From the IMG/VR virus record IMGVR_UViG_3300035670_000125: 64,000 nucleotides of DNA. One strand, given 5' to 3'. Below the pieces are notes generated by a model that did not search any database, was not told the origin of the DNA, and saw only the letters and a program-made list of their open reading frames with translations. Of the stretch, positions 892 through 59,612 are shown one piece after another. Every line of letters begins with the position of its first letter. Positions within the stretch are counted from its first letter, which is position 1. The translations under genes were made by a program, and so were the position numbers. Source of the DNA: a virus.

Positions 892-2912
892 TGGCTAAAT
901 CCCGTTTTAAACCACCGTCAGAAGAAACATTAAAACTTCTCGGAGATGGGTCGATTACTAGTCCACAAGCGGAGACTGGTTTTAAAGCTCCGTCGGAAGA
1001 GACTTTAAAATCGCTCGGAATTGAAGAGCCAAAATCGACCCTAGAATCTTTAGGTGAAACTGCGTCTGATTTTTCAAGAGGTGCCGCTTCGGGGATAACT
1101 TTTGGTGGTATTGAAGAGTTAACTGCAGGTGGTAAGGCCGCTTTAGAGTCTTTAACTAGCACCAAAGATGAATCATTAGAAGACCTTTATAGGAGATACC
1201 TTGAAATAGAAGAGAAGAAAACAAAAGAAGCACGAGAAAGAAGTCCTGTTGCGTCCATGGTTGGTGAATTTGCAGGTGGGTTAGCACCTGCCTTTTTTAC
1301 TGGTGGCGCTTCAATGGCTGCTACTGGCGGTAGTACTGTCGGGCGTTTGGTTGGAAAAGAGCTATTTAAGGCTGCAGGGAGACGGGCAGCAACTGAAGGA
1401 GCTATAGGAGCTGCAGGTGGTGCTCTTGCTGGTGGTCTAAGTAGTGAAGGTAAACTCATTGGTGCAACAGAAGAAGAAAAAAGTAAGCTGTTAGAGGATA
1501 TTATGTCTGGTGCTCTTACCGGGGGTGTCGCTGGGGGATCTATCGGGGGGATCTTGACTGGACTTGGTAAAATTGGTGGTGCAGTAAGTAAAGCCACTAA
1601 AGACTATGCAGGTAAGACCGTAGCTGGTAAGCAAATAGAGGAAGCCTTCGAAACGGGAGCCAAGGGTATAGGTTATACAACCATCCCGGATAAAACTGCC
1701 ATTAGTGTGGGTATTAAAACTGCCGTTGAAGATGCGACTAAATTAATGAGTACTACACTAAAAAGTGCCGGTAATACCATAGAAGAGGTCTTAAGTGAGG
1801 CAGATAAATTTGGTGTGAGGGTTTCTCTCCCAACTGGTGCACTAGACGATGCCATTTCTATTTTAAAATCAAAAAATAGAGAAGGATTGATCAAAGAAAT
1901 TAAGGACACTCTAGATCAGAAAATGGACCCTTTAACATTAACTAGACAAGAGGCCAATTCTCCGTCTGTTATAAGCAAAATTAGAAATCTTCTAAAAGAA
2001 ACCAACGACGATCCAAAATTATATGAAGCATTAAAACCGACTATAGATTCTTTAAAAGACTCAATACAAGAATCGTTTGAAAAAAGCCCAGGATTAAAAG
2101 AAAAACTTAAAGAATTGGGACTTCCTGCTTCATACAAAAAGGCAATGGAGAATTACACAAAACTTGCTAGTGCTGTTCCTGAAACAATCATTAGTAAGGG
2201 CGCGCCCCCAGAACTTAGATCTAAATTCATAAATGAGTATGGCGACCCCCCTGGCACTCTGAATAAGTCACTAGAGAGCCTTGTTAGTAAGTTATTCTCA
2301 CCTGGTGCAGACATTAAAGACTCCATTTATACAATGACCGTTTTAAAGAGTAATCTAGATAAAATAGGTTCTGACCCAGAGTTAGTTAGTGTTTTAAACA
2401 AGGCAATTAAAGACGCAGGGGGGGATCCAAAAATAACCAAAGTTTTCGGTGAAATTAAAAACATAGACGATTTTAAAAAGGCACTAATTTCTAAAATAGA
2501 AGACGCGGGAATTAAGGAATCAACTTTTAAAGGAGTGGTTGGTGAAAGCGCAAAACAATCCAATTATGGTTCGGGATTGATCTCTGAACTGAAAACTCTT
2601 GGTAGAGAGGGTGCACTTAGGATTTCTAATATTGCAGGGGGTGTGAGTGCTTTTGGTAAACGCGCCGCAAAGAGAGCATCCGAAACTGCACCAGTTAAAA
2701 TTTCATCTGCCTTATATTCTCTTCCAGAGACTGGATTAAGACGAGTTGCATCTAAATTAGAACAATCACCGGAGTTTAGTAAATATGCAAAAAGATTAAA
2801 TGATGCATTAGATGCCGGTGACACCGTTAAAAGAGACGCTGTCTTATTCTTACTAATGCAAAACCCTAAAATGCGAGCAATCGTACCCGATTTAATCGGT
2901 GAGGAAGAATAA
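891..2912 (+). CDS. putative internal virion/ejection-type protein with Gly-rich hydrophobic segments
   Basis: 673-aa ORF coupled to its neighbours. Repeated 'PSEETLK(L/S)LG' at the N-terminus. Long Gly/Ala-rich hydrophobic stretches (GGLAPAFFTGGASMAATGG, GALTGGVAGGSIGGILTGLGKIGG). The functional call is by analogy only. Confidence 0.6.
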   Translation: MAKSRFKPPSEETLKLLGDGSITSPQAETGFKAPSEETLKSLGIEEPKSTLESLGETASDFSRGAASGITFGGIEELTAGGKAALESLTSTKDESLEDLYRRYLEIEEKKTKEARERSPVASMVGEFAGGLAPAFFTGGASMAATGGSTVGRLVGKELFKAAGRRAATEGAIGAAGGALAGGLSSEGKLIGATEEEKSKLLEDIMSGALTGGVAGGSIGGILTGLGKIGGAVSKATKDYAGKTVAGKQIEEAFETGAKGIGYTTIPDKTAISVGIKTAVEDATKLMSTTLKSAGNTIEEVLSEADKFGVRVSLPTGALDDAISILKSKNREGLIKEIKDTLDQKMDPLTLTRQEANSPSVISKIRNLLKETNDDPKLYEALKPTIDSLKDSIQESFEKSPGLKEKLKELGLPASYKKAMENYTKLASAVPETIISKGAPPELRSKFINEYGDPPGTLNKSLESLVSKLFSPGADIKDSIYTMTVLKSNLDKIGSDPELVSVLNKAIKDAGGDPKITKVFGEIKNIDDFKKALISKIEDAGIKESTFKGVVGESAKQSNYGSGLISELKTLGREGALRISNIAGGVSAFGKRAAKRASETAPVKISSALYSLPETGLRRVASKLEQSPEFSKYAKRLNDALDAGDTVKRDAVLFLLMQNPKMRAIVPDLIGEEE

Positions 2913-3197
2913 ATGGATATCGACCGTATATACGAAAGTTTAGATAAAATTGATTCTGAATTAACCGAACTACGAATTATTTCCGCTAAACAAGAAGAAA
3001 ATATTAAAGAACACATTCGTAGAACAGAACTAGCAGAAGAAAATTTAACTATTCTGCGTCAAGAAATCGAACCCTTAAAACAACACGTCATTGTGATTAA
3101 TGGGATTTTACGCGTCATCGGTGTCGTTTCCGTTATTATTGGTTCTGCTGCAGGTATCTTCGAGATCATCAGTAAAATCATCAACTACATGAAGTAA
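2913..3197 (+). CDS. small coiled-coil protein with C-terminal transmembrane segment
   Basis: ATG directly follows the preceding TAA. Charged helical N-terminal half, then the hydrophobic stretch VIVINGILRVIGVVSVIIGSAAGIFEII. Last gene of the rightward block. Confidence 0.55.
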   Translation: MDIDRIYESLDKIDSELTELRIISAKQEENIKEHIRRTELAEENLTILRQEIEPLKQHVIVINGILRVIGVVSVIIGSAAGIFEIISKIINYMK

Positions 3198-3542
3198 TTC
3201 ATTTGTTTTATCGATCAGTATCGCTTTTTTATTTAATCTTAATTCATCTATTGATACGTGTGTACCAGACGCTTTAGACTTTGTAAGCATGTCTCGGTTA
3301 CGCGCATTGTTCCTTCTGTAGCAGTCTTGCTTTAGCTCTTTAGTGTTATGTAGATTTTTTTCTAGATTCTGACTATCTAAAGATGCATTGACGTATTCTT
3401 CGGTAAATTTATTCAACCAAGCTTTTTCTTCTTCGGTTAAATCATTTACATAATCATAGTCTATTAATTCATATCTAGTTTTTAGGTTTAGTTCTGGTCT
3501 TAGAGCGGGGTACTTGGCTCGCTCTCTTCTGTTTTTTGCCAT
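3108..3542 (-). CDS. hypothetical protein
   Basis: 144-aa ORF with a basic N-terminus (MAKNRRERAKYP). Its 3' end overlaps the convergent gene 2913-3197 by about 90 nt, and its 5' end overlaps the upstream ORF by 68 nt. Confidence 0.45.
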   Translation of the reverse strand: MAKNRRERAKYPALRPELNLKTRYELIDYDYVNDLTEEEKAWLNKFTEEYVNASLDSQNLEKNLHNTKELKQDCYRRNNARNRDMLTKSKASGTHVSIDELRLNKKAILIDKTNELLHVVDDFTDDLEDTCSRTNNNGNDTDDA

Positions 3543-5605: not shown

Positions 5606-5804
5606 TTATACTAATTCTTCTTGAGAAGTACAAGGCAGAAGAAACGCCAAAATATTCTAATGCAATACTCGTATCTTCCACTTTACCCGAAAGATCGAGT
5701 GATGCTGCTACCAATAAAAAAACCGTCGATATCATCAAATTACTTAACGATACAGACGGCTTTTTAGTTATTGGATCTAATATAAAAGGTATTTTTATCT
5801 GCAT
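5559..5804 (-). CDS. small membrane protein
   Basis: 81-aa ORF with the hydrophobic segment LMISTVFLLVAASLDL. Overlaps the next gene. Confidence 0.45.
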   Translation of the reverse strand: MQIKIPFILDPITKKPSVSLSNLMISTVFLLVAASLDLSGKVEDTSIALEYFGVSSALYFSRRISINGREFTSESDKNNNV

Positions 5805-5821
5805 ACATTATAAATAAACAT

Positions 5822-6184
5822 CTAATCTTCTGATTTGTCAAGTTCTTTAAAAGATTTTCTCATTTCATCTTCTAACATAGTTTTAATTTCATGATCCATC
5901 TTACAAAGAATCTGGAAACCTTCGACATCACAGAGTAGATTATTTATAAAGTCATCCCACCCAGAGAATCCAACTGAAGGATTGATTACTGGTTTTATGT
6001 GATCGATGTGTACTTCGTCCTTTTTGAAGTTACCCTCACACATTGCACATCTGTATAGGCCGCGATCGACTCTTGCTTTTTTGAGGGCTTCATTCCTAGG
6101 AGGCCAACGTAATGATGCCCTTCTTAATGCTCCGGTGACAAAGGTTTTTCTGTTATGTTTTTTGAGCTTTGGTTCTTTTGCCAC
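5822..6184 (-). CDS. HNH endonuclease (free-standing)
   Basis: CAMCEG...VHIDHIKP...N...CKMDHEIK arrangement, typical of the HNH beta-beta-alpha-metal fold with flanking Cys pairs. Confidence 0.8.
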   Translation of the reverse strand: MAKEPKLKKHNRKTFVTGALRRASLRWPPRNEALKKARVDRGLYRCAMCEGNFKKDEVHIDHIKPVINPSVGFSGWDDFINNLLCDVEGFQILCKMDHEIKTMLEDEMRKSFKELDKSED

Positions 6185-6452
6185 AACTATTACACTTTCT
6201 TATTTTCCTACCAACAATTTCGAATTCTTCTACTTCGGTTTTATTACAGAATTCACAGGAATATAGTTTGGGGACATACTCTTCGTTTTTAAACTTTGTT
6301 TGTACGTCGGTTTCTTCGAATTCATGGTAAGTAAATTTTTTATCTATTTTTTTTAATCTTCTAACTAGAGACTTGTTGATTGCTTTTAATGTTCTTATTT
6401 GATCCTCGAGTTGCTCGATCTTGTCTTCGTCTTCACTCTTTTTTCTGCCCAT
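6153..6452 (-). CDS. zinc-ribbon protein
   Basis: CEFCNK...CNSCGK paired CxxC motifs after a charged helical N-terminus. Confidence 0.55.
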   Translation of the reverse strand: MGRKKSEDEDKIEQLEDQIRTLKAINKSLVRRLKKIDKKFTYHEFEETDVQTKFKNEEYVPKLYSCEFCNKTEVEEFEIVGRKIRKCNSCGKRTKAQKT

Positions 6453-6660
6453 TGTTTAGCCTCTGAACTAGATCTTTGTAGCTTTCTTTGAGTTGTTTAA
6501 TATGACTCTTTACGTTGTATAGTGCTTCCAAGGCAATTTCAGAATGTTCTTCATATCTAGAGGATTGAACGCTTTTGTAGCTGGCTATTAAATGGTCAGC
6601 GTTTTCTTCTACAGTTTTTAACGCTGTTATATAGCCTTTTATATAATCGTTGGTGATCAT
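6433..6660 (-). CDS. hypothetical protein
   Basis: 75-aa helical ORF overlapping both neighbours in the leftward train. Confidence 0.5.
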   Translation of the reverse strand: MITNDYIKGYITALKTVEENADHLIASYKSVQSSRYEEHSEIALEALYNVKSHIKQLKESYKDLVQRLNNGQKKE

Positions 6661-28153: not shown

Positions 28154-28231
28154 TGGCTGGGGGAGCTGGGATCGAACCAGCCTCGTTCTCGGTTAACAGC
28201 CGAGCGCATTCACCTTGATTGCTACCCCCCA
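28154..28231 (-). tRNA. tRNA-Asn: tRNA-Asn (anticodon GUU), CCA encoded
   Basis: Minus strand: acceptor TGGGGGG/TCCCCCA, D arm GCAA-TCAAGGTGA-ATGC, anticodon arm CTCGG-CTGTTAA-CCGAG, T arm GCTGG-TTCGATC-CCAGC and a GCCA 3' end. Confidence 0.8.
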
Positions 28232-57194: not shown

Positions 57195-57350
57195 ATGTCA
57201 ACTGCAAATACTGTTGTTAGTTTGAACGGAATGTTCAAAGAAACTTATGGAGACAAGCTCCAAGAACTTATTCCAGATGGAGTTAAGGTTCTAAATAAAA
57301 TCAAATTTCAGAGTAAGGATAAGACACCTGGTAACCTTTACCATCAGCCT
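57195..57350 (+). CDS. major capsid protein, exon 1 (52 codons)
   Basis: ATG at 57195 with AAAGG upstream. Encodes MSTANTVVSLNGMFKETYGDKLQELIPDGVKVLNKIKFQSKDKTPGNLYHQP, then an in-frame TAA. The reading frame resumes at 58501. Confidence 0.7.
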
Positions 57351-58500
57351 TAATATAAGGGGCTGTTTAAACCGAATCTGATTGACTCGGAAACCCTAAA
57401 AATATTAGTCTAATTTTAGGACAACGAGGCGGAACCAATGAAAAAAGTAGCAGACGACATTAAAATTGAAATCTTAATTAGTGATTATCTAGAATTAGAT
57501 AGTTCTTATAAGGTTGCACATAAACATGGCGTGAGTGCTACTGCTGTGAAGCGGCTTTTAAAAAAAGCAGGAGTGCTTAGGACTCAAAACGTAGCAGCTG
57601 AAATTAGATACAGAAAAAATCAATTCAATAAATACGAGAGAACCCCTCTTCAAAAAGAAAATCTTTCTAATTTAGCAAAACAAAGAACTGGTGAAAATAA
57701 TCCCTTTTTTGGGAAGAAACATTCTCAAGAAGTTAAAAACAAATTATCAGATAATGCTAAAAAAAGAACAAAGGATAGAAACCCCAACTACAAAAACGGT
57801 AAATATGTTAGAAGACCTAGAGATTATAAAATTTCGGAATTTAAACCTCTCCGTAGTTTTGTGTTTAATAGGGACAAGTTTACTTGTTTTTATTGTAAGA
57901 AAAAGGGTGGACATTTGCATGCCCATCATATTCTACCCTACTGGATTAAGCCAGAAGCTTTTCTTGATGAAAAGAATTTGATTACTGTATGTACTACTTG
58001 CCATTTTGAAAAGGCGCATAATTCAAATTGGCACACTTTTGATATTAGTTTAATAACAGAGGAATTAGTAGTGAAATACTCATTGGACCGTGAACGACTA
58101 AGTGATTTGGCTGTTTTGAAAAAAACAGATGCAATAGTCTGAACTGTGGGAATAAATAAAGCCACAGAGAAGAATCCGAAGAGGTTCTTCCCCTGTAGCC
58201 AATACAGGCGTAACATTATGATTATTTTAGGACTAGAACACGGTAAACAGTAATGCCGTGTATAAATTGGTGAAAAAACTTGGAAAGCTACAGAGAATTA
58301 ATTCTCCATGCTAATCAGAGCGGAAGTTCTAAGGGTAATACCTCTGAACACGCGCAACGACTAGGATTTGAACCCGCTTTAGCGGAATAAAATAATCCCA
58401 CGAGTCACCAACAATCTCAATTACAGGGATTGAAAAGATAGTCTGACCTTATAGGAAACTATAAGAAGTAGGGGATAAAGAGCCCTTACGATAACACTAG
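57351..58500 (+). mobile_element. putative group I intron carrying an HNH homing endonuclease ORF
   Basis: The 5' exon ends in U (57350). Intron GGGCUG (57360-65) can pair with exon CAGCCU, giving a U.G pair at the splice site (P1). The intron ends in G (58500). The 3' 360 nt is dense in hairpins. Joining 57350 to 58501 is in frame. Confidence 0.7.
57438..58142 (+). CDS. intron-encoded HNH homing endonuclease with NUMOD3-like motif
   Basis: GENNPFFGKKHSQEVKNKLS (NUMOD3-like) and CFYCKKKGGHLHAHHILP...N...CTTCHFEKAH (HNH). Confidence 0.85.
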   Translation: MKKVADDIKIEILISDYLELDSSYKVAHKHGVSATAVKRLLKKAGVLRTQNVAAEIRYRKNQFNKYERTPLQKENLSNLAKQRTGENNPFFGKKHSQEVKNKLSDNAKKRTKDRNPNYKNGKYVRRPRDYKISEFKPLRSFVFNRDKFTCFYCKKKGGHLHAHHILPYWIKPEAFLDEKNLITVCTTCHFEKAHNSNWHTFDISLITEELVVKYSLDRERLSDLAVLKKTDAIV

Positions 58501-59559
58501 GTTACATTCGCAAGTTCTGATGATGACGCGTTTAATCTCCAGACTCCAGTTTCTGGTCAGATCAAGGACGCACAGGTTAAAGGTTATCCAGCAGTTCTAC
58601 GTTCCGTTCTCGGATACGTAGCTGCATCTCGTGCTGCTCTTGGTGGACAAAAGGCTTTCATGGATGCAACCAAGTATCTCGTTGCAAACATGCTTCGTTC
58701 TATGTCCAAAAAGCTTGAGATTGAAATGCTTTATGGTCAAATGGGTTATGCTAAAGTGGATGGTGCTTTAACCGCTGCCACTGTTATACCAATTAAGGCA
58801 CAAGAATGGGCTCCTGGAATTTGGGCAGGTGCCGAAGGGATGCCTATTGAAATTCGTCTTGGATCTACGCTAAAGGCTTCGGTTAAAGTCACTAAAGTCG
58901 ATATGGCAGCAAGAACTATCACAGTCGATGGTCCTGTGACATGTGATGATGGAGATGATATTTATCATCGTGGTGCTTATGGAAATGAATTCCCTGGAGT
59001 TCATAAAATCCTCACCAATACTGGCACTCTTTTCAATATCGATGCTAGTGCTTATAACCTTTTCAAGGGTAACGAATATGATGCTGATGGAGCCCCCCTT
59101 TCTTTCACTAAGTTAGGACAGGCTTCCACTCGTGCGGTTGAAAAGGGTCAAGAAGGAAAACTTCTTGCTCTTGTTAACCCACGTGCATGGCAGGATATGC
59201 TTTCGGATCAAGCTGCTCTTCGTGACTACGACGGTAGCTACACCTCCGCAAAGATGGAGAACGGCGCTCGCTCACTCCTCTATCATTCCCAAGGTGGAGA
59301 AATCGAGATCGAATCATCTCTTTATGTTAAAGAAGGTCATGCTTTCCTCCTAAGCCTCGAGGATTGGATGCGTGTTGGTTCTTCCGACATTTCATTCAAG
59401 CGTCCTGGTCAAGGGGAAGAGTTCTTCCGTGATCTTGAGAATAGTGCTGGTTACGAGCTTCGCCTCTATACCGACCAAGCTCTCTTCTGTCAGGCTCCTG
59501 GACGTAATACCGTCATCGTCAATATTGTAAATTCCGATGATGTTGTAGCAAGTCCATAA
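58501..59559 (+). CDS. major capsid protein, exon 2
   Basis: The frame is open from 58501, just after a TAG at 58498-500: VTFASSDDDAFNLQTPVSGQIKDAQVKGYPAVLRS...FMDATKY. The ORF-track ATG at 58660 is internal. Call is based on position after the scaffold gene and on size (404 aa once joined). Confidence 0.7.
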   Translation, partial: VTFASSDDDAFNLQTPVSGQIKDAQVKGYPAVLRSVLGYVAASRAALGGQKAFMDATKYLVANMLRSMSKKLEIEMLYGQMGYAKVDGALTAATVIPIKAQEWAPGIWAGAEGMPIEIRLGSTLKASVKVTKVDMAARTITVDGPVTCDDGDDIYHRGAYGNEFPGVHKILTNTGTLFNIDASAYNLFKGNEYDADGAPLSFTKLGQASTRAVEKGQEGKLLALVNPRAWQDMLSDQAALRDYDGSYTSAKMENGARSLLYHSQGGEIEIESSLYVKEGHAFLLSLEDWMRVGSSDISFKRPGQGEEFFRDLENSAGYELRLYTDQALFCQAPGRNTVIVNIVNSDDVVASP

Positions 59560-59574
59560 TAACGGTCCTTTAGG

Positions 59575-59612
59575 GGAGGGGTGGGGTGTGTTCCCCATCC
59601 CTCCTTTTTATT
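59575..59612 (+). terminator. intrinsic terminator
   Basis: 12-bp stem GGAGGGGTGGGG/CCCCATCCCTCC (one G.U pair) followed by TTTTTATTT. Confidence 0.8.

Follow-up and report, generated by a model that had tools for sequence, protein, structure and literature searches.

The window analyzed here is a 64,000-nt stretch, one strand read 5′ to 3′, of the virus record IMGVR_UViG_3300035670_000125 from IMG/VR, and the locus in question (57195-59559) encodes the major capsid protein of an uncultured phage. It begins with an open reading frame (ORF) of 52 codons (57195-57353), which is preceded by an AAAGG Shine-Dalgarno-like site and ends with a TAA at 57351-57353. An ORF for an HNH endonuclease follows, and the capsid frame reopens at 58501, right after a TAG at 58498-58500. 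These elements had been correctly described in an earlier note made from the sequence alone, which explained them by a single group I intron of ~1.15 kb (57351-58500) with an HNH/NUMOD homing endonuclease inside. That proposal was right in kind, since a group I intron with such an endonuclease does lie in the capsid gene, but its anatomy was wrong: our analysis makes it highly probable that the gene consists of three exons split by two independent group I introns, here called A and B, which lie 24 nt apart.

As a query for homologues we used the 404-aa product obtained by joining 57350 to 58501, and more than 2,000 were returned, the top ones being uninterrupted proteins of 408-417 aa, about 70-82% identical to the query. 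Alignment of this product had been suggested as a way of confirming the junction, which does keep the reading frame; instead, the alignment with 17 homologues revealed a gap of eight residues, relative to uninterrupted ones, exactly at the junction. Every full-length homologue aligned carries the peptide [IV]ILG[LM]EHG between ...NLYHQP and VTFA..., and in no column of it does conservation fall below 70% of the aligned sequences. The missing peptide, IILGLEHG, is encoded in the right order inside the supposed single intron, and because its codons occupy exactly 58221-58244, the gene is best read as three exons, the second of them a 24-nt mini-exon that the 57350-58501 join omits. On the strength of this gap and mini-exon we rejected the one-intron anatomy. 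Exons 1, 2, and 3 together encode a 412-aa major capsid protein, in which the stretch TPGNLYHQPIILGLEHGVTFASSDDDAFNLQTPVSGQIK covers both splice junctions; the best homologue (P0001), which is uninterrupted and ~82% identical, has the same length. Exon 1 aligns with residues 1-59 of the uninterrupted homologues, and exon 3 matches PHROG 14242 (major head protein, 4e-11). Moreover, the mini-exon adjoins exon 1 without a break in one related contig (L208) and exon 3 without a break in another (L003), and is also present in a third (L189). Both insertion sites fall in a highly conserved stretch of the capsid protein (codons 52-60). Gene callers reduce the gene to fragments of 52 aa and 289-299 aa; on a contig identical to the window the call is a truncated capsid protein of 289 aa (P0014), just as the earlier note had predicted of automated annotation.

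Comparison of relatives gave intron A a compact group I architecture without P2 and P7.1/P7.2, whose core has the order P3-P4-P5-P6-P7-P3′-P8-P7′-P9 and includes the P3/P7 pseudoknot. The helix that had been proposed as P1, with its U.G pair at the splice site, is real, but it belongs to this intron, which ends at G58220; exact excision between these sites puts the capsid frame back together, conserved peptide included. An in-frame TAA lies directly 3′ of the 5′ splice site. The structure was drawn by hand (52 pairs, including the pseudoknot) and tested on an alignment, A3, of 46 family members, comprising the window copy with its 636-nt ORF loop excised, relatives, and ORF-less members. In A3, 92.8% of the cells were paired, versus 39-44% when the partners were slid by 1-3 columns, and 40 of the 52 pairs had changed on both sides. 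The covariation score was 0.525, compared to 0.16 for shuffled alignments, and none of 500 shuffles reached the observed value. Particularly, P3 was 98.8% paired and all seven of its pairs had changed on both sides, and most pairs of P6/P6a, P8, P9, and P9.1 covary. The strands of P6a, which the 636-nt ORF loop separates, covary and read CCAAUG/CAUUGG in the window, CUAAUG/CAUUAG in L003, AUAGUG/CACUAU in L086, UUAGUG/CACUAA in L088, and GGAUAU/AUAUCC in L089.

The gene lodged in the P6a loop of intron A encodes a protein of 234 aa with Pfam matches to HNH (1.2e-5, 25.8 bits, cut-off 21.4) and, N-terminal to it, NUMOD3 (6.2e-8). It also matched 17 PHROG families, mostly HNH or homing endonuclease families, and a sequence search of the PDB returned weak matches only (5h0m, 9e-4; the DNA-binding domain of I-TevI, 3.6e-3). 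The protein thus combines an HNH motif with a DNA-binding module, and cleavage by it is predicted. It has 131 homologues at E≤1e-10, and among 28 relatives residues H161, H163, H164, H189, and H194 are invariant. Its start codon (57438-40) falls within the 5′ strand of P6a and a GAGG Shine-Dalgarno-like site (57426-29) within P4′/P6, while its final ~20 codons encode P6a′, P6′, P7, P3′, P8, and P7′, and its UGA stop (58140-42) overlaps the end of P7′. None of the 28 aligned family proteins deviates from the C-terminal "ERL" (GAA CGA CUA, the 5′ strand of P7), and the window and L003 are 100% identical over 58093-58132, compared to 68-98% in 40-nt bins over the rest of the ORF, because the 3′ end of the ORF doubles as ribozyme core. 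With the ribosome-binding site (RBS) and start codon paired in P4/P6/P6a and the 3′ end encoding P7-P3-P8, translation of the endonuclease and folding of the ribozyme would be mutually exclusive in any one RNA molecule. The G+C content of the HNH region is 30-35%, versus 43-48% in exon 3.

A protein pattern and an exact 22-mer detected no close relatives of the HNH gene or intron A in IMG/VR; relatives of both were obtained from the protein database, by looking up contigs, and with a degenerate P7...P7′ pattern. With the degenerate pattern we found at least 118 copies of the A family in IMG/VR (loci L090-L207), often two or three per gene, as in L094, L103, and L119, which hold 2-3 copies each. 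Besides intron A, no second copy of the motif was found in the 64-kb window, the gap range of the motif being too short to span P7-P7′ of intron B. A blastn search of the family against catalogued phage records gave only four matches, in uncultured Caudoviricetes sp. MW202674 (in a "P22 coat protein" gene), Roseobacter phage CRP-118, and Desulfovibrio phage 7757 (two records).

Intron B was recognized by the Rfam group I model. The search of the insert that the earlier note had proposed yielded an RF00028 match at 58213-58465 (50.3 bits, gathering score 50, E 4e-11), the sole group I match in the window; the equivalent intron in L189 scored 52.8 bits. The P3-P7 pseudoknot, P4-P6, and P8 are all present and covered by the Rfam alignment, P1 and P3 also appear in the minimum-free-energy fold, and the splice sites are marked by a U.G pair in P1, formed by the terminal U of the mini-exon, by a P10 helix, and by a terminal G. 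This is the G58500 that had been taken as the end of the single intron; it is a true splice-site G, but that of an intron with its own P1. Likewise, the hairpins said to pack the last 360 nt of the insert do exist, although this stretch comprises the P9-P9.2 hairpins of intron A (58144-58208), the mini-exon, and the whole of intron B rather than one ribozyme core. An in-frame TAA (58251-53) follows the 5′ splice site. Among four relatives, few sequences for such a purpose, compensatory changes were seen in P8 (L189 and L208) and in P7.1, P7.2, and P9.1 (L210). Subgroup IA2, as defined by Michel and Westhof, has extra P7.1/P7.2 hairpins between P7 and P3′, and intron B, which has them, resembles IA2 by its architecture, the only basis of the assignment. 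Its 3′ end (58429-58500) is 92% identical (66 of 72 nt) to positions 105415-105483 of Bacillus phage Eyuki (KT207918; L001 3001-3069), and the similarity ends exactly at 58500, the 3′ splice site. That an aquatic phage capsid gene and the DNA polymerase gene of a Bacillus Herelleviridae phage hold introns with such similar 3′ ends suggests that intron modules have been exchanged between distant phages. The features of the locus are listed in Table 1.

Table 1. Exons, introns, structural elements, and reading frames of the interrupted capsid gene, in window coordinates.
Feature	Position	Strand	Remarks
Capsid exon 1	57195-57350	+	52 codons, ...NLYHQP; terminal U57350 forms the U.G pair of intron A P1
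Intron A	57351-58220	+	870 nt; compact group I family, HNH/NUMOD3 gene inside
Intron A P1	57345-50/57360-65	+	CAGCCU/GGGCUG, U57350.G57360 at splice site
Intron A P3	57372-78/58104-10	+	
Intron A P4	57386-89/57425-28	+	
Intron A P5	57394-401/57414-20	+	
Intron A P6	57429-32/58088-91	+	
Intron A P6a	57435-40/58081-86	+	
HNH/NUMOD3 homing-endonuclease gene	57438-58142	+	234 aa, in P6a loop of intron A
Intron A P7	58094-100/58135-40	+	ACGACUA with UAGUCU
Intron A P8	58111-17/58122-28	+	between the P7 strands
Intron A P9	58144-49/58162-67	+	
Intron A P9.1	58169-76/58183-90	+	
Intron A P9.2	58192-97/58203-08	+	
Intron A terminal G	58220	+	family-wide 3′ end GUAACA-N4-G
Mini-exon	58221-58244	+	24 nt, ATT ATT TTA GGA CTA GAA CAC GGT = IILGLEHG
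Intron B	58245-58500	+	256 nt, no ORF, IA2-like architecture
Intron B P1	58238-44/58255-61	+	ACACGGU/GCCGUGU, 7 bp, U58244.G58255
Intron B P10	58250-54 with exon 58501-05	+	GUAAU/GUUAC, 5 bp
Intron B P3	58267-73/58405-11	+	
Intron B P4	58279-83/58316-20	+	
Short open frame in intron B	58280-58390	+	last 26 codons (ANQSGSSKGNTSEHAQRLGFEPALAE) match C-terminus of L208 GIY-YIG protein; no gene here
Intron B P5	58287-311	+	
Intron B P6-P6b	58320-53	+	
Intron B P7	58357-63/58439-44	+	
Intron B P7.1/P7.2	58364-98	+	nested hairpins, GGAUU...AAUCC around CCGC-UUUA-GCGG, between P7 and P3′
Intron B P8	58412-18/58426-32	+	
Intron B P9	58448-65	+	
Intron B P9.1	58469-88	+	
Intron B terminal G	58500	+	
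Capsid exon 3	58501-59559	+	352 codons and stop

Capsid genes ~80% identical to each other at the protein level occur in all four intron states. Neither intron is present in L211, which encodes P0001 and provides the intron-less target sequence ...CACCAGCCAATTATCCTTGGTCTAGAACACGGCGTTACC...; L003 has A only, with GGC GTT contiguous at the B site; L208 has B only; and both introns are found in the window, in the identical contig L004, and in L189. In L208 (the same contig as L216) intron B occupies the same capsid site (5660-6506, 847 nt) and contains in its P5 loop, reading on into P7.1, a gene for a 221-aa GIY-YIG protein (Pfam GIY-YIG, 2.4e-8), for which a sequence search of the PDB gave no match. 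L189 (IMGVR_UViG_3300044638_004427, reverse strand, 1873-3505) has three introns within the first 70 capsid codons. The first, a LAGLIDADG intron, follows codon 49; after an exon of 30 nt comes intron A, without an ORF and at the same site as in the window, and beyond the mini-exon of 24 nt lies intron B, likewise ORF-less. The codons that precede the introns differ accordingly between alleles of the window, L211, L003, and L208, intron-bearing ones having CCU (A) and GGU (B) and intron-less ones CCA and GGC. A synonymous third-position U at both sites fits the U.G requirement of P1, or may have arisen by co-conversion during homing.

The two sites are part of a wider insertion hotspot. The contigs that encode homologues of the HNH protein (L003, L086, L087, L088, and L089) have the capsid gene interrupted likewise, at the position seen in the window or close to it, and five intron positions were found within a 30-nt stretch of the capsid genes of these and other relatives. 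In the numbering of P0001 they are His57|Gln58 (an ORF-less intron in L088, two codons upstream of the A site of the window), Pro59|Ile60 (the window, L003, and L189), two nt downstream of the latter (L086, L087, and L088), Gly63|Leu64 (L089), and Gly67|Val68 (the window, L189, and L208). In L088 (JGI Ga0673020_0000041, 2232-2440), an exon of only 8 nt (CAACCCGU) separates an ORF-less from an HNH-bearing intron of the A family, and is shorter than the inter-intron exons of 23 nt in Twort and 34 nt in Coxiella (PMC10136302). LAGLIDADG introns lie near codon 20 in L086-L089, and the one in L089 matches RF00028 with 51 bits. In a more distant capsid homologue (L210, 4800-7160), a different position, codon 86|87, is the site of a B-like intron that carries a GIY-YIG gene, and codons 23 and 35 have a LAGLIDADG ORF between them; the intron load therefore reaches beyond the hotspot of codons 57-67. 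Three endonuclease families, HNH, GIY-YIG, and LAGLIDADG, are thus found in the hotspot region.

From this organization we propose that the late pre-mRNA would fold into two ribozymes. A guanosine-driven cut would take place after the U of each P1 (U57350 for A, U58244 for B), ligation would follow the terminal G of each intron (G58220 and G58500), and two splicing events would join 57350 to 58221 and 58244 to 58501, giving the mRNA for the 412-aa capsid protein. The stop codons just inside introns A and B would halt ribosomes on unspliced RNA. The presumed target of the HNH enzyme is the intron-less capsid allele of a co-infecting relative, which it would cut or nick near codon 52/53; repair would then copy intron A into the cut allele (homing), and intron B, being only 24 nt off, could be co-converted along with it. 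The presence/absence pattern and the AT-rich HNH region look like the signature of a mobile intron and would be consistent with such homing.

Several observations weigh against this interpretation and should be considered with caution. The splicing is predicted from the DNA sequence, and an ATG (58218-20) stands in frame just 5′ of the mini-exon, which makes a separately translated C-terminal fragment conceivable. The RF00028 score of intron B barely exceeds the gathering score. For intron A, RF00028 gave no match in the window, nor to the ORF-less copies in L088 and L189 even at E≤10, and two other members of the family reached only sub-threshold scores of 27-30 bits (E 5e-4 and 6e-3), so that its assignment to group I is a model built from a hand-made structure, covariation, and sub-threshold matches. 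This structure was derived from the same sequences on which it was tested; P7 has no independent weight, because it was fixed by the pattern used to collect the sequences, P4 has just 4 bp, and support for P9.2 is poor, with 50% paired. The failure of the Rfam search weakens the formal membership of intron A, but it has no bearing on the evidence for the fold, and the single RF00028 model appears to be insensitive to the A family.

The one-intron explanation, that is, a group I intron from 57351 to 58500 with its P1 at 57345-65, its terminal G at 58500, and a 404-aa capsid protein, draws on a join that is in frame and on a P1 and a terminal G that are both real splice-site elements. We consider it very improbable, as it deletes a peptide that all full-length homologues in the alignment carry and whose codons are intact at 58221-44. 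Moreover, intron B has a P1 and a P10 of its own that use the mini-exon, the two introns are found separately in relatives, and the wobble U58244 is specific to alleles that bear B. Exon skipping between tandem group I introns is known in orf142 of phage Twort (PMC10136302), and the 57350/58501 junction is possible as a by-product of this type. It would then stem from exon skipping only, and its product would probably be non-functional. The ATG at 58218-20 invites another explanation, in which intron A is never spliced and the gene works in pieces, the 52-aa peptide assembling non-covalently with a C-terminal protein that starts there (M-IILGLEHG...); nrdA of phage Aeh1, reportedly split by mobE, would be the model. 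The ATG is in the frame of the mini-exon and gene callers do start the capsid protein at this point in L003 (P0075), yet no convincing Shine-Dalgarno site precedes 58218, and the GUAACA-N4-G terminus shared by the whole family is enough to account for the "AUG", which forms its end. Nor would the insertion of a free-standing gene explain the ORF-less versions at the same site (as in L189), or why a group I fold that is conserved and covaries, with P6a pairing across the ORF, is made up of the flanks of the HNH ORF together with its last ~20 codons. We therefore regard a gene in pieces as hardly credible.

Finally, the sequence comes from a metagenome assembly and no isolate exists, so we considered whether the interrupted gene could be dead, or an artefact of a defective genome or a chimeric contig. 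The chance of this seems close to negligible: over 8.87 kb an 81-kb Logan contig has the identical sequence, as does, from 58465 onward, a contig of a second run (SRR10854513), the HNH protein is present on three contigs, one of them from JGI, none of the three exons is damaged and their identity to uninterrupted homologues is ~82%, and the layout of A, mini-exon, and B recurs in the diverged IMG/VR contig L189.

Within the two-intron reading, the 30-nt stretch ...YHQPIILGLEHG|V could be a battleground, in which stacked introns each block the endonuclease of another. I-TevI cuts 23 and 25 nt upstream of the insertion site of its own intron (PMC2988022). As the A site precedes the B site by exactly 24 nt, and intron B of L208 has a GIY-YIG gene, intron A may occupy and destroy the cleavage site of a B enzyme that cuts in this manner; genomes bearing A would then be immune to that enzyme, and the endonuclease gene of B would be free to decay. 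Intron B is indeed ORF-less in both lineages that also hold A, a pattern that comprises three lineages in all. A metagenome scan for further B-bearing capsid genes returned only the L208 contig again, together with chance matches. Because only three lineages bear on it, we see competition as a speculative and rather unlikely explanation.

The DNA-polymerase introns of Bacillus SPO1/Bastille-like phages encode the HNH endonucleases I-HmuI and I-BasI. Intron B shares with the Bastille type the P7′-P9-P9.1-3′ end region as well as IA2-type P7.1/P7.2, but it lies in another host gene and phage lineage and has no ORF, and its L208 counterpart encodes a GIY-YIG protein in P5; in our own reading of the Eyuki sequence, by contrast, the ORF (I-BasI) appears to be in the P8 loop. 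Closest in layout is orf142 of Staphylococcus phage Twort, which has three group I introns, the second and third of which (IA2) flank a 23-nt exon that can be skipped (Landthaler and Shub, 1999, as cited in PMC10136302). Both cases have tandem group I introns in a phage protein gene, and a mini-exon of ~24 nt whose skipping keeps the frame; in the window, however, the introns belong to different structural families, one of them carries an HNH gene, the host gene encodes a capsid protein, and the splicing is deduced from sequence. In Coxiella burnetii, IB2 and IA3 introns flank a 34-nt exon of the 23S rRNA gene (PMC10136302), again two group I introns of different subgroups around a very short exon, although in a bacterial rRNA gene and not in a phage protein-coding gene. 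Introns in capsid genes have been described in mycobacteriophage LittleE, whose gp13 has an 819-bp intron with a putative endonuclease gene and splicing shown by RT-PCR, and in lactococcal phage Tuc2009 (PMC3706429). Like the window, these probably combine a group I intron and a putative homing endonuclease in a highly expressed capsid gene, with a U at the end of exon 1 and a G at the end of the intron, but they are single introns, whereas the window has two and L189 three, with exons of 30 and 24 nt between them. In T4 the RBS of the intron ORF is sequestered in RNA structure (PMC2988022), and here too the RBS and start codon of the ORF are paired. Further likenesses to T4 td/I-TevI are the GIY-YIG gene of L208 intron B and the NUMOD3 and I-TevI zinc-finger-like motifs of the HNH protein of the window. 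In the PDB, no sequence similarity to the catalytic domain of I-TevI was detected. Unlike the T4 ORF, those described here are in P6a (A) or P5 (L208 B) and run through the catalytic core. The tandem introns of the window are therefore a known kind of selfish element; what is distinctive is that two structurally different introns lie 24 nt apart in a capsid gene, that one of them has an ORF running through its ribozyme core, and that its family escapes Rfam.

The capsid gene is part of a morphogenesis module, where it is preceded by genes for the terminase, a P22-like portal, and a coiled-coil scaffold-like protein. An inverted repeat rich in G+C (GGGGAGGGGTGGGG...CCCCATCCCTCC) with a T run behind it, directly 3′ of the capsid stop (59573-59612), looks like an intrinsic terminator. 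Upstream lies a replication module (family B DNA polymerase, DnaB-primase, and class II ribonucleotide reductase); that half of the window also has a tRNA gene on the minus strand (28157-28231, Rfam RF00005, 45.5 bits). The only cultured relative of the capsid and terminase proteins is a Silvanigrella phage, distant at 28-32% identity, and in INPHARED the only near match to the region was with the last 72 nt of intron B.

These results have consequences for annotation. Repairing the gene with a single intron would lose eight conserved residues, since the 412-aa product needs two junctions and a 24-nt exon. Surveys that rely on RF00028 would undercount phage introns, as the model is practically blind to the abundant A family, and alignment A3 could seed a dedicated intron model. 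Moreover, mobile introns with three classes of endonucleases are densely clustered in the N-terminal region of the capsid gene of this uncultured lineage, a hotspot that is a natural system in which to study competition between homing endonucleases, co-conversion of neighboring introns, and ribozymes that work with exons of 8-30 nt.

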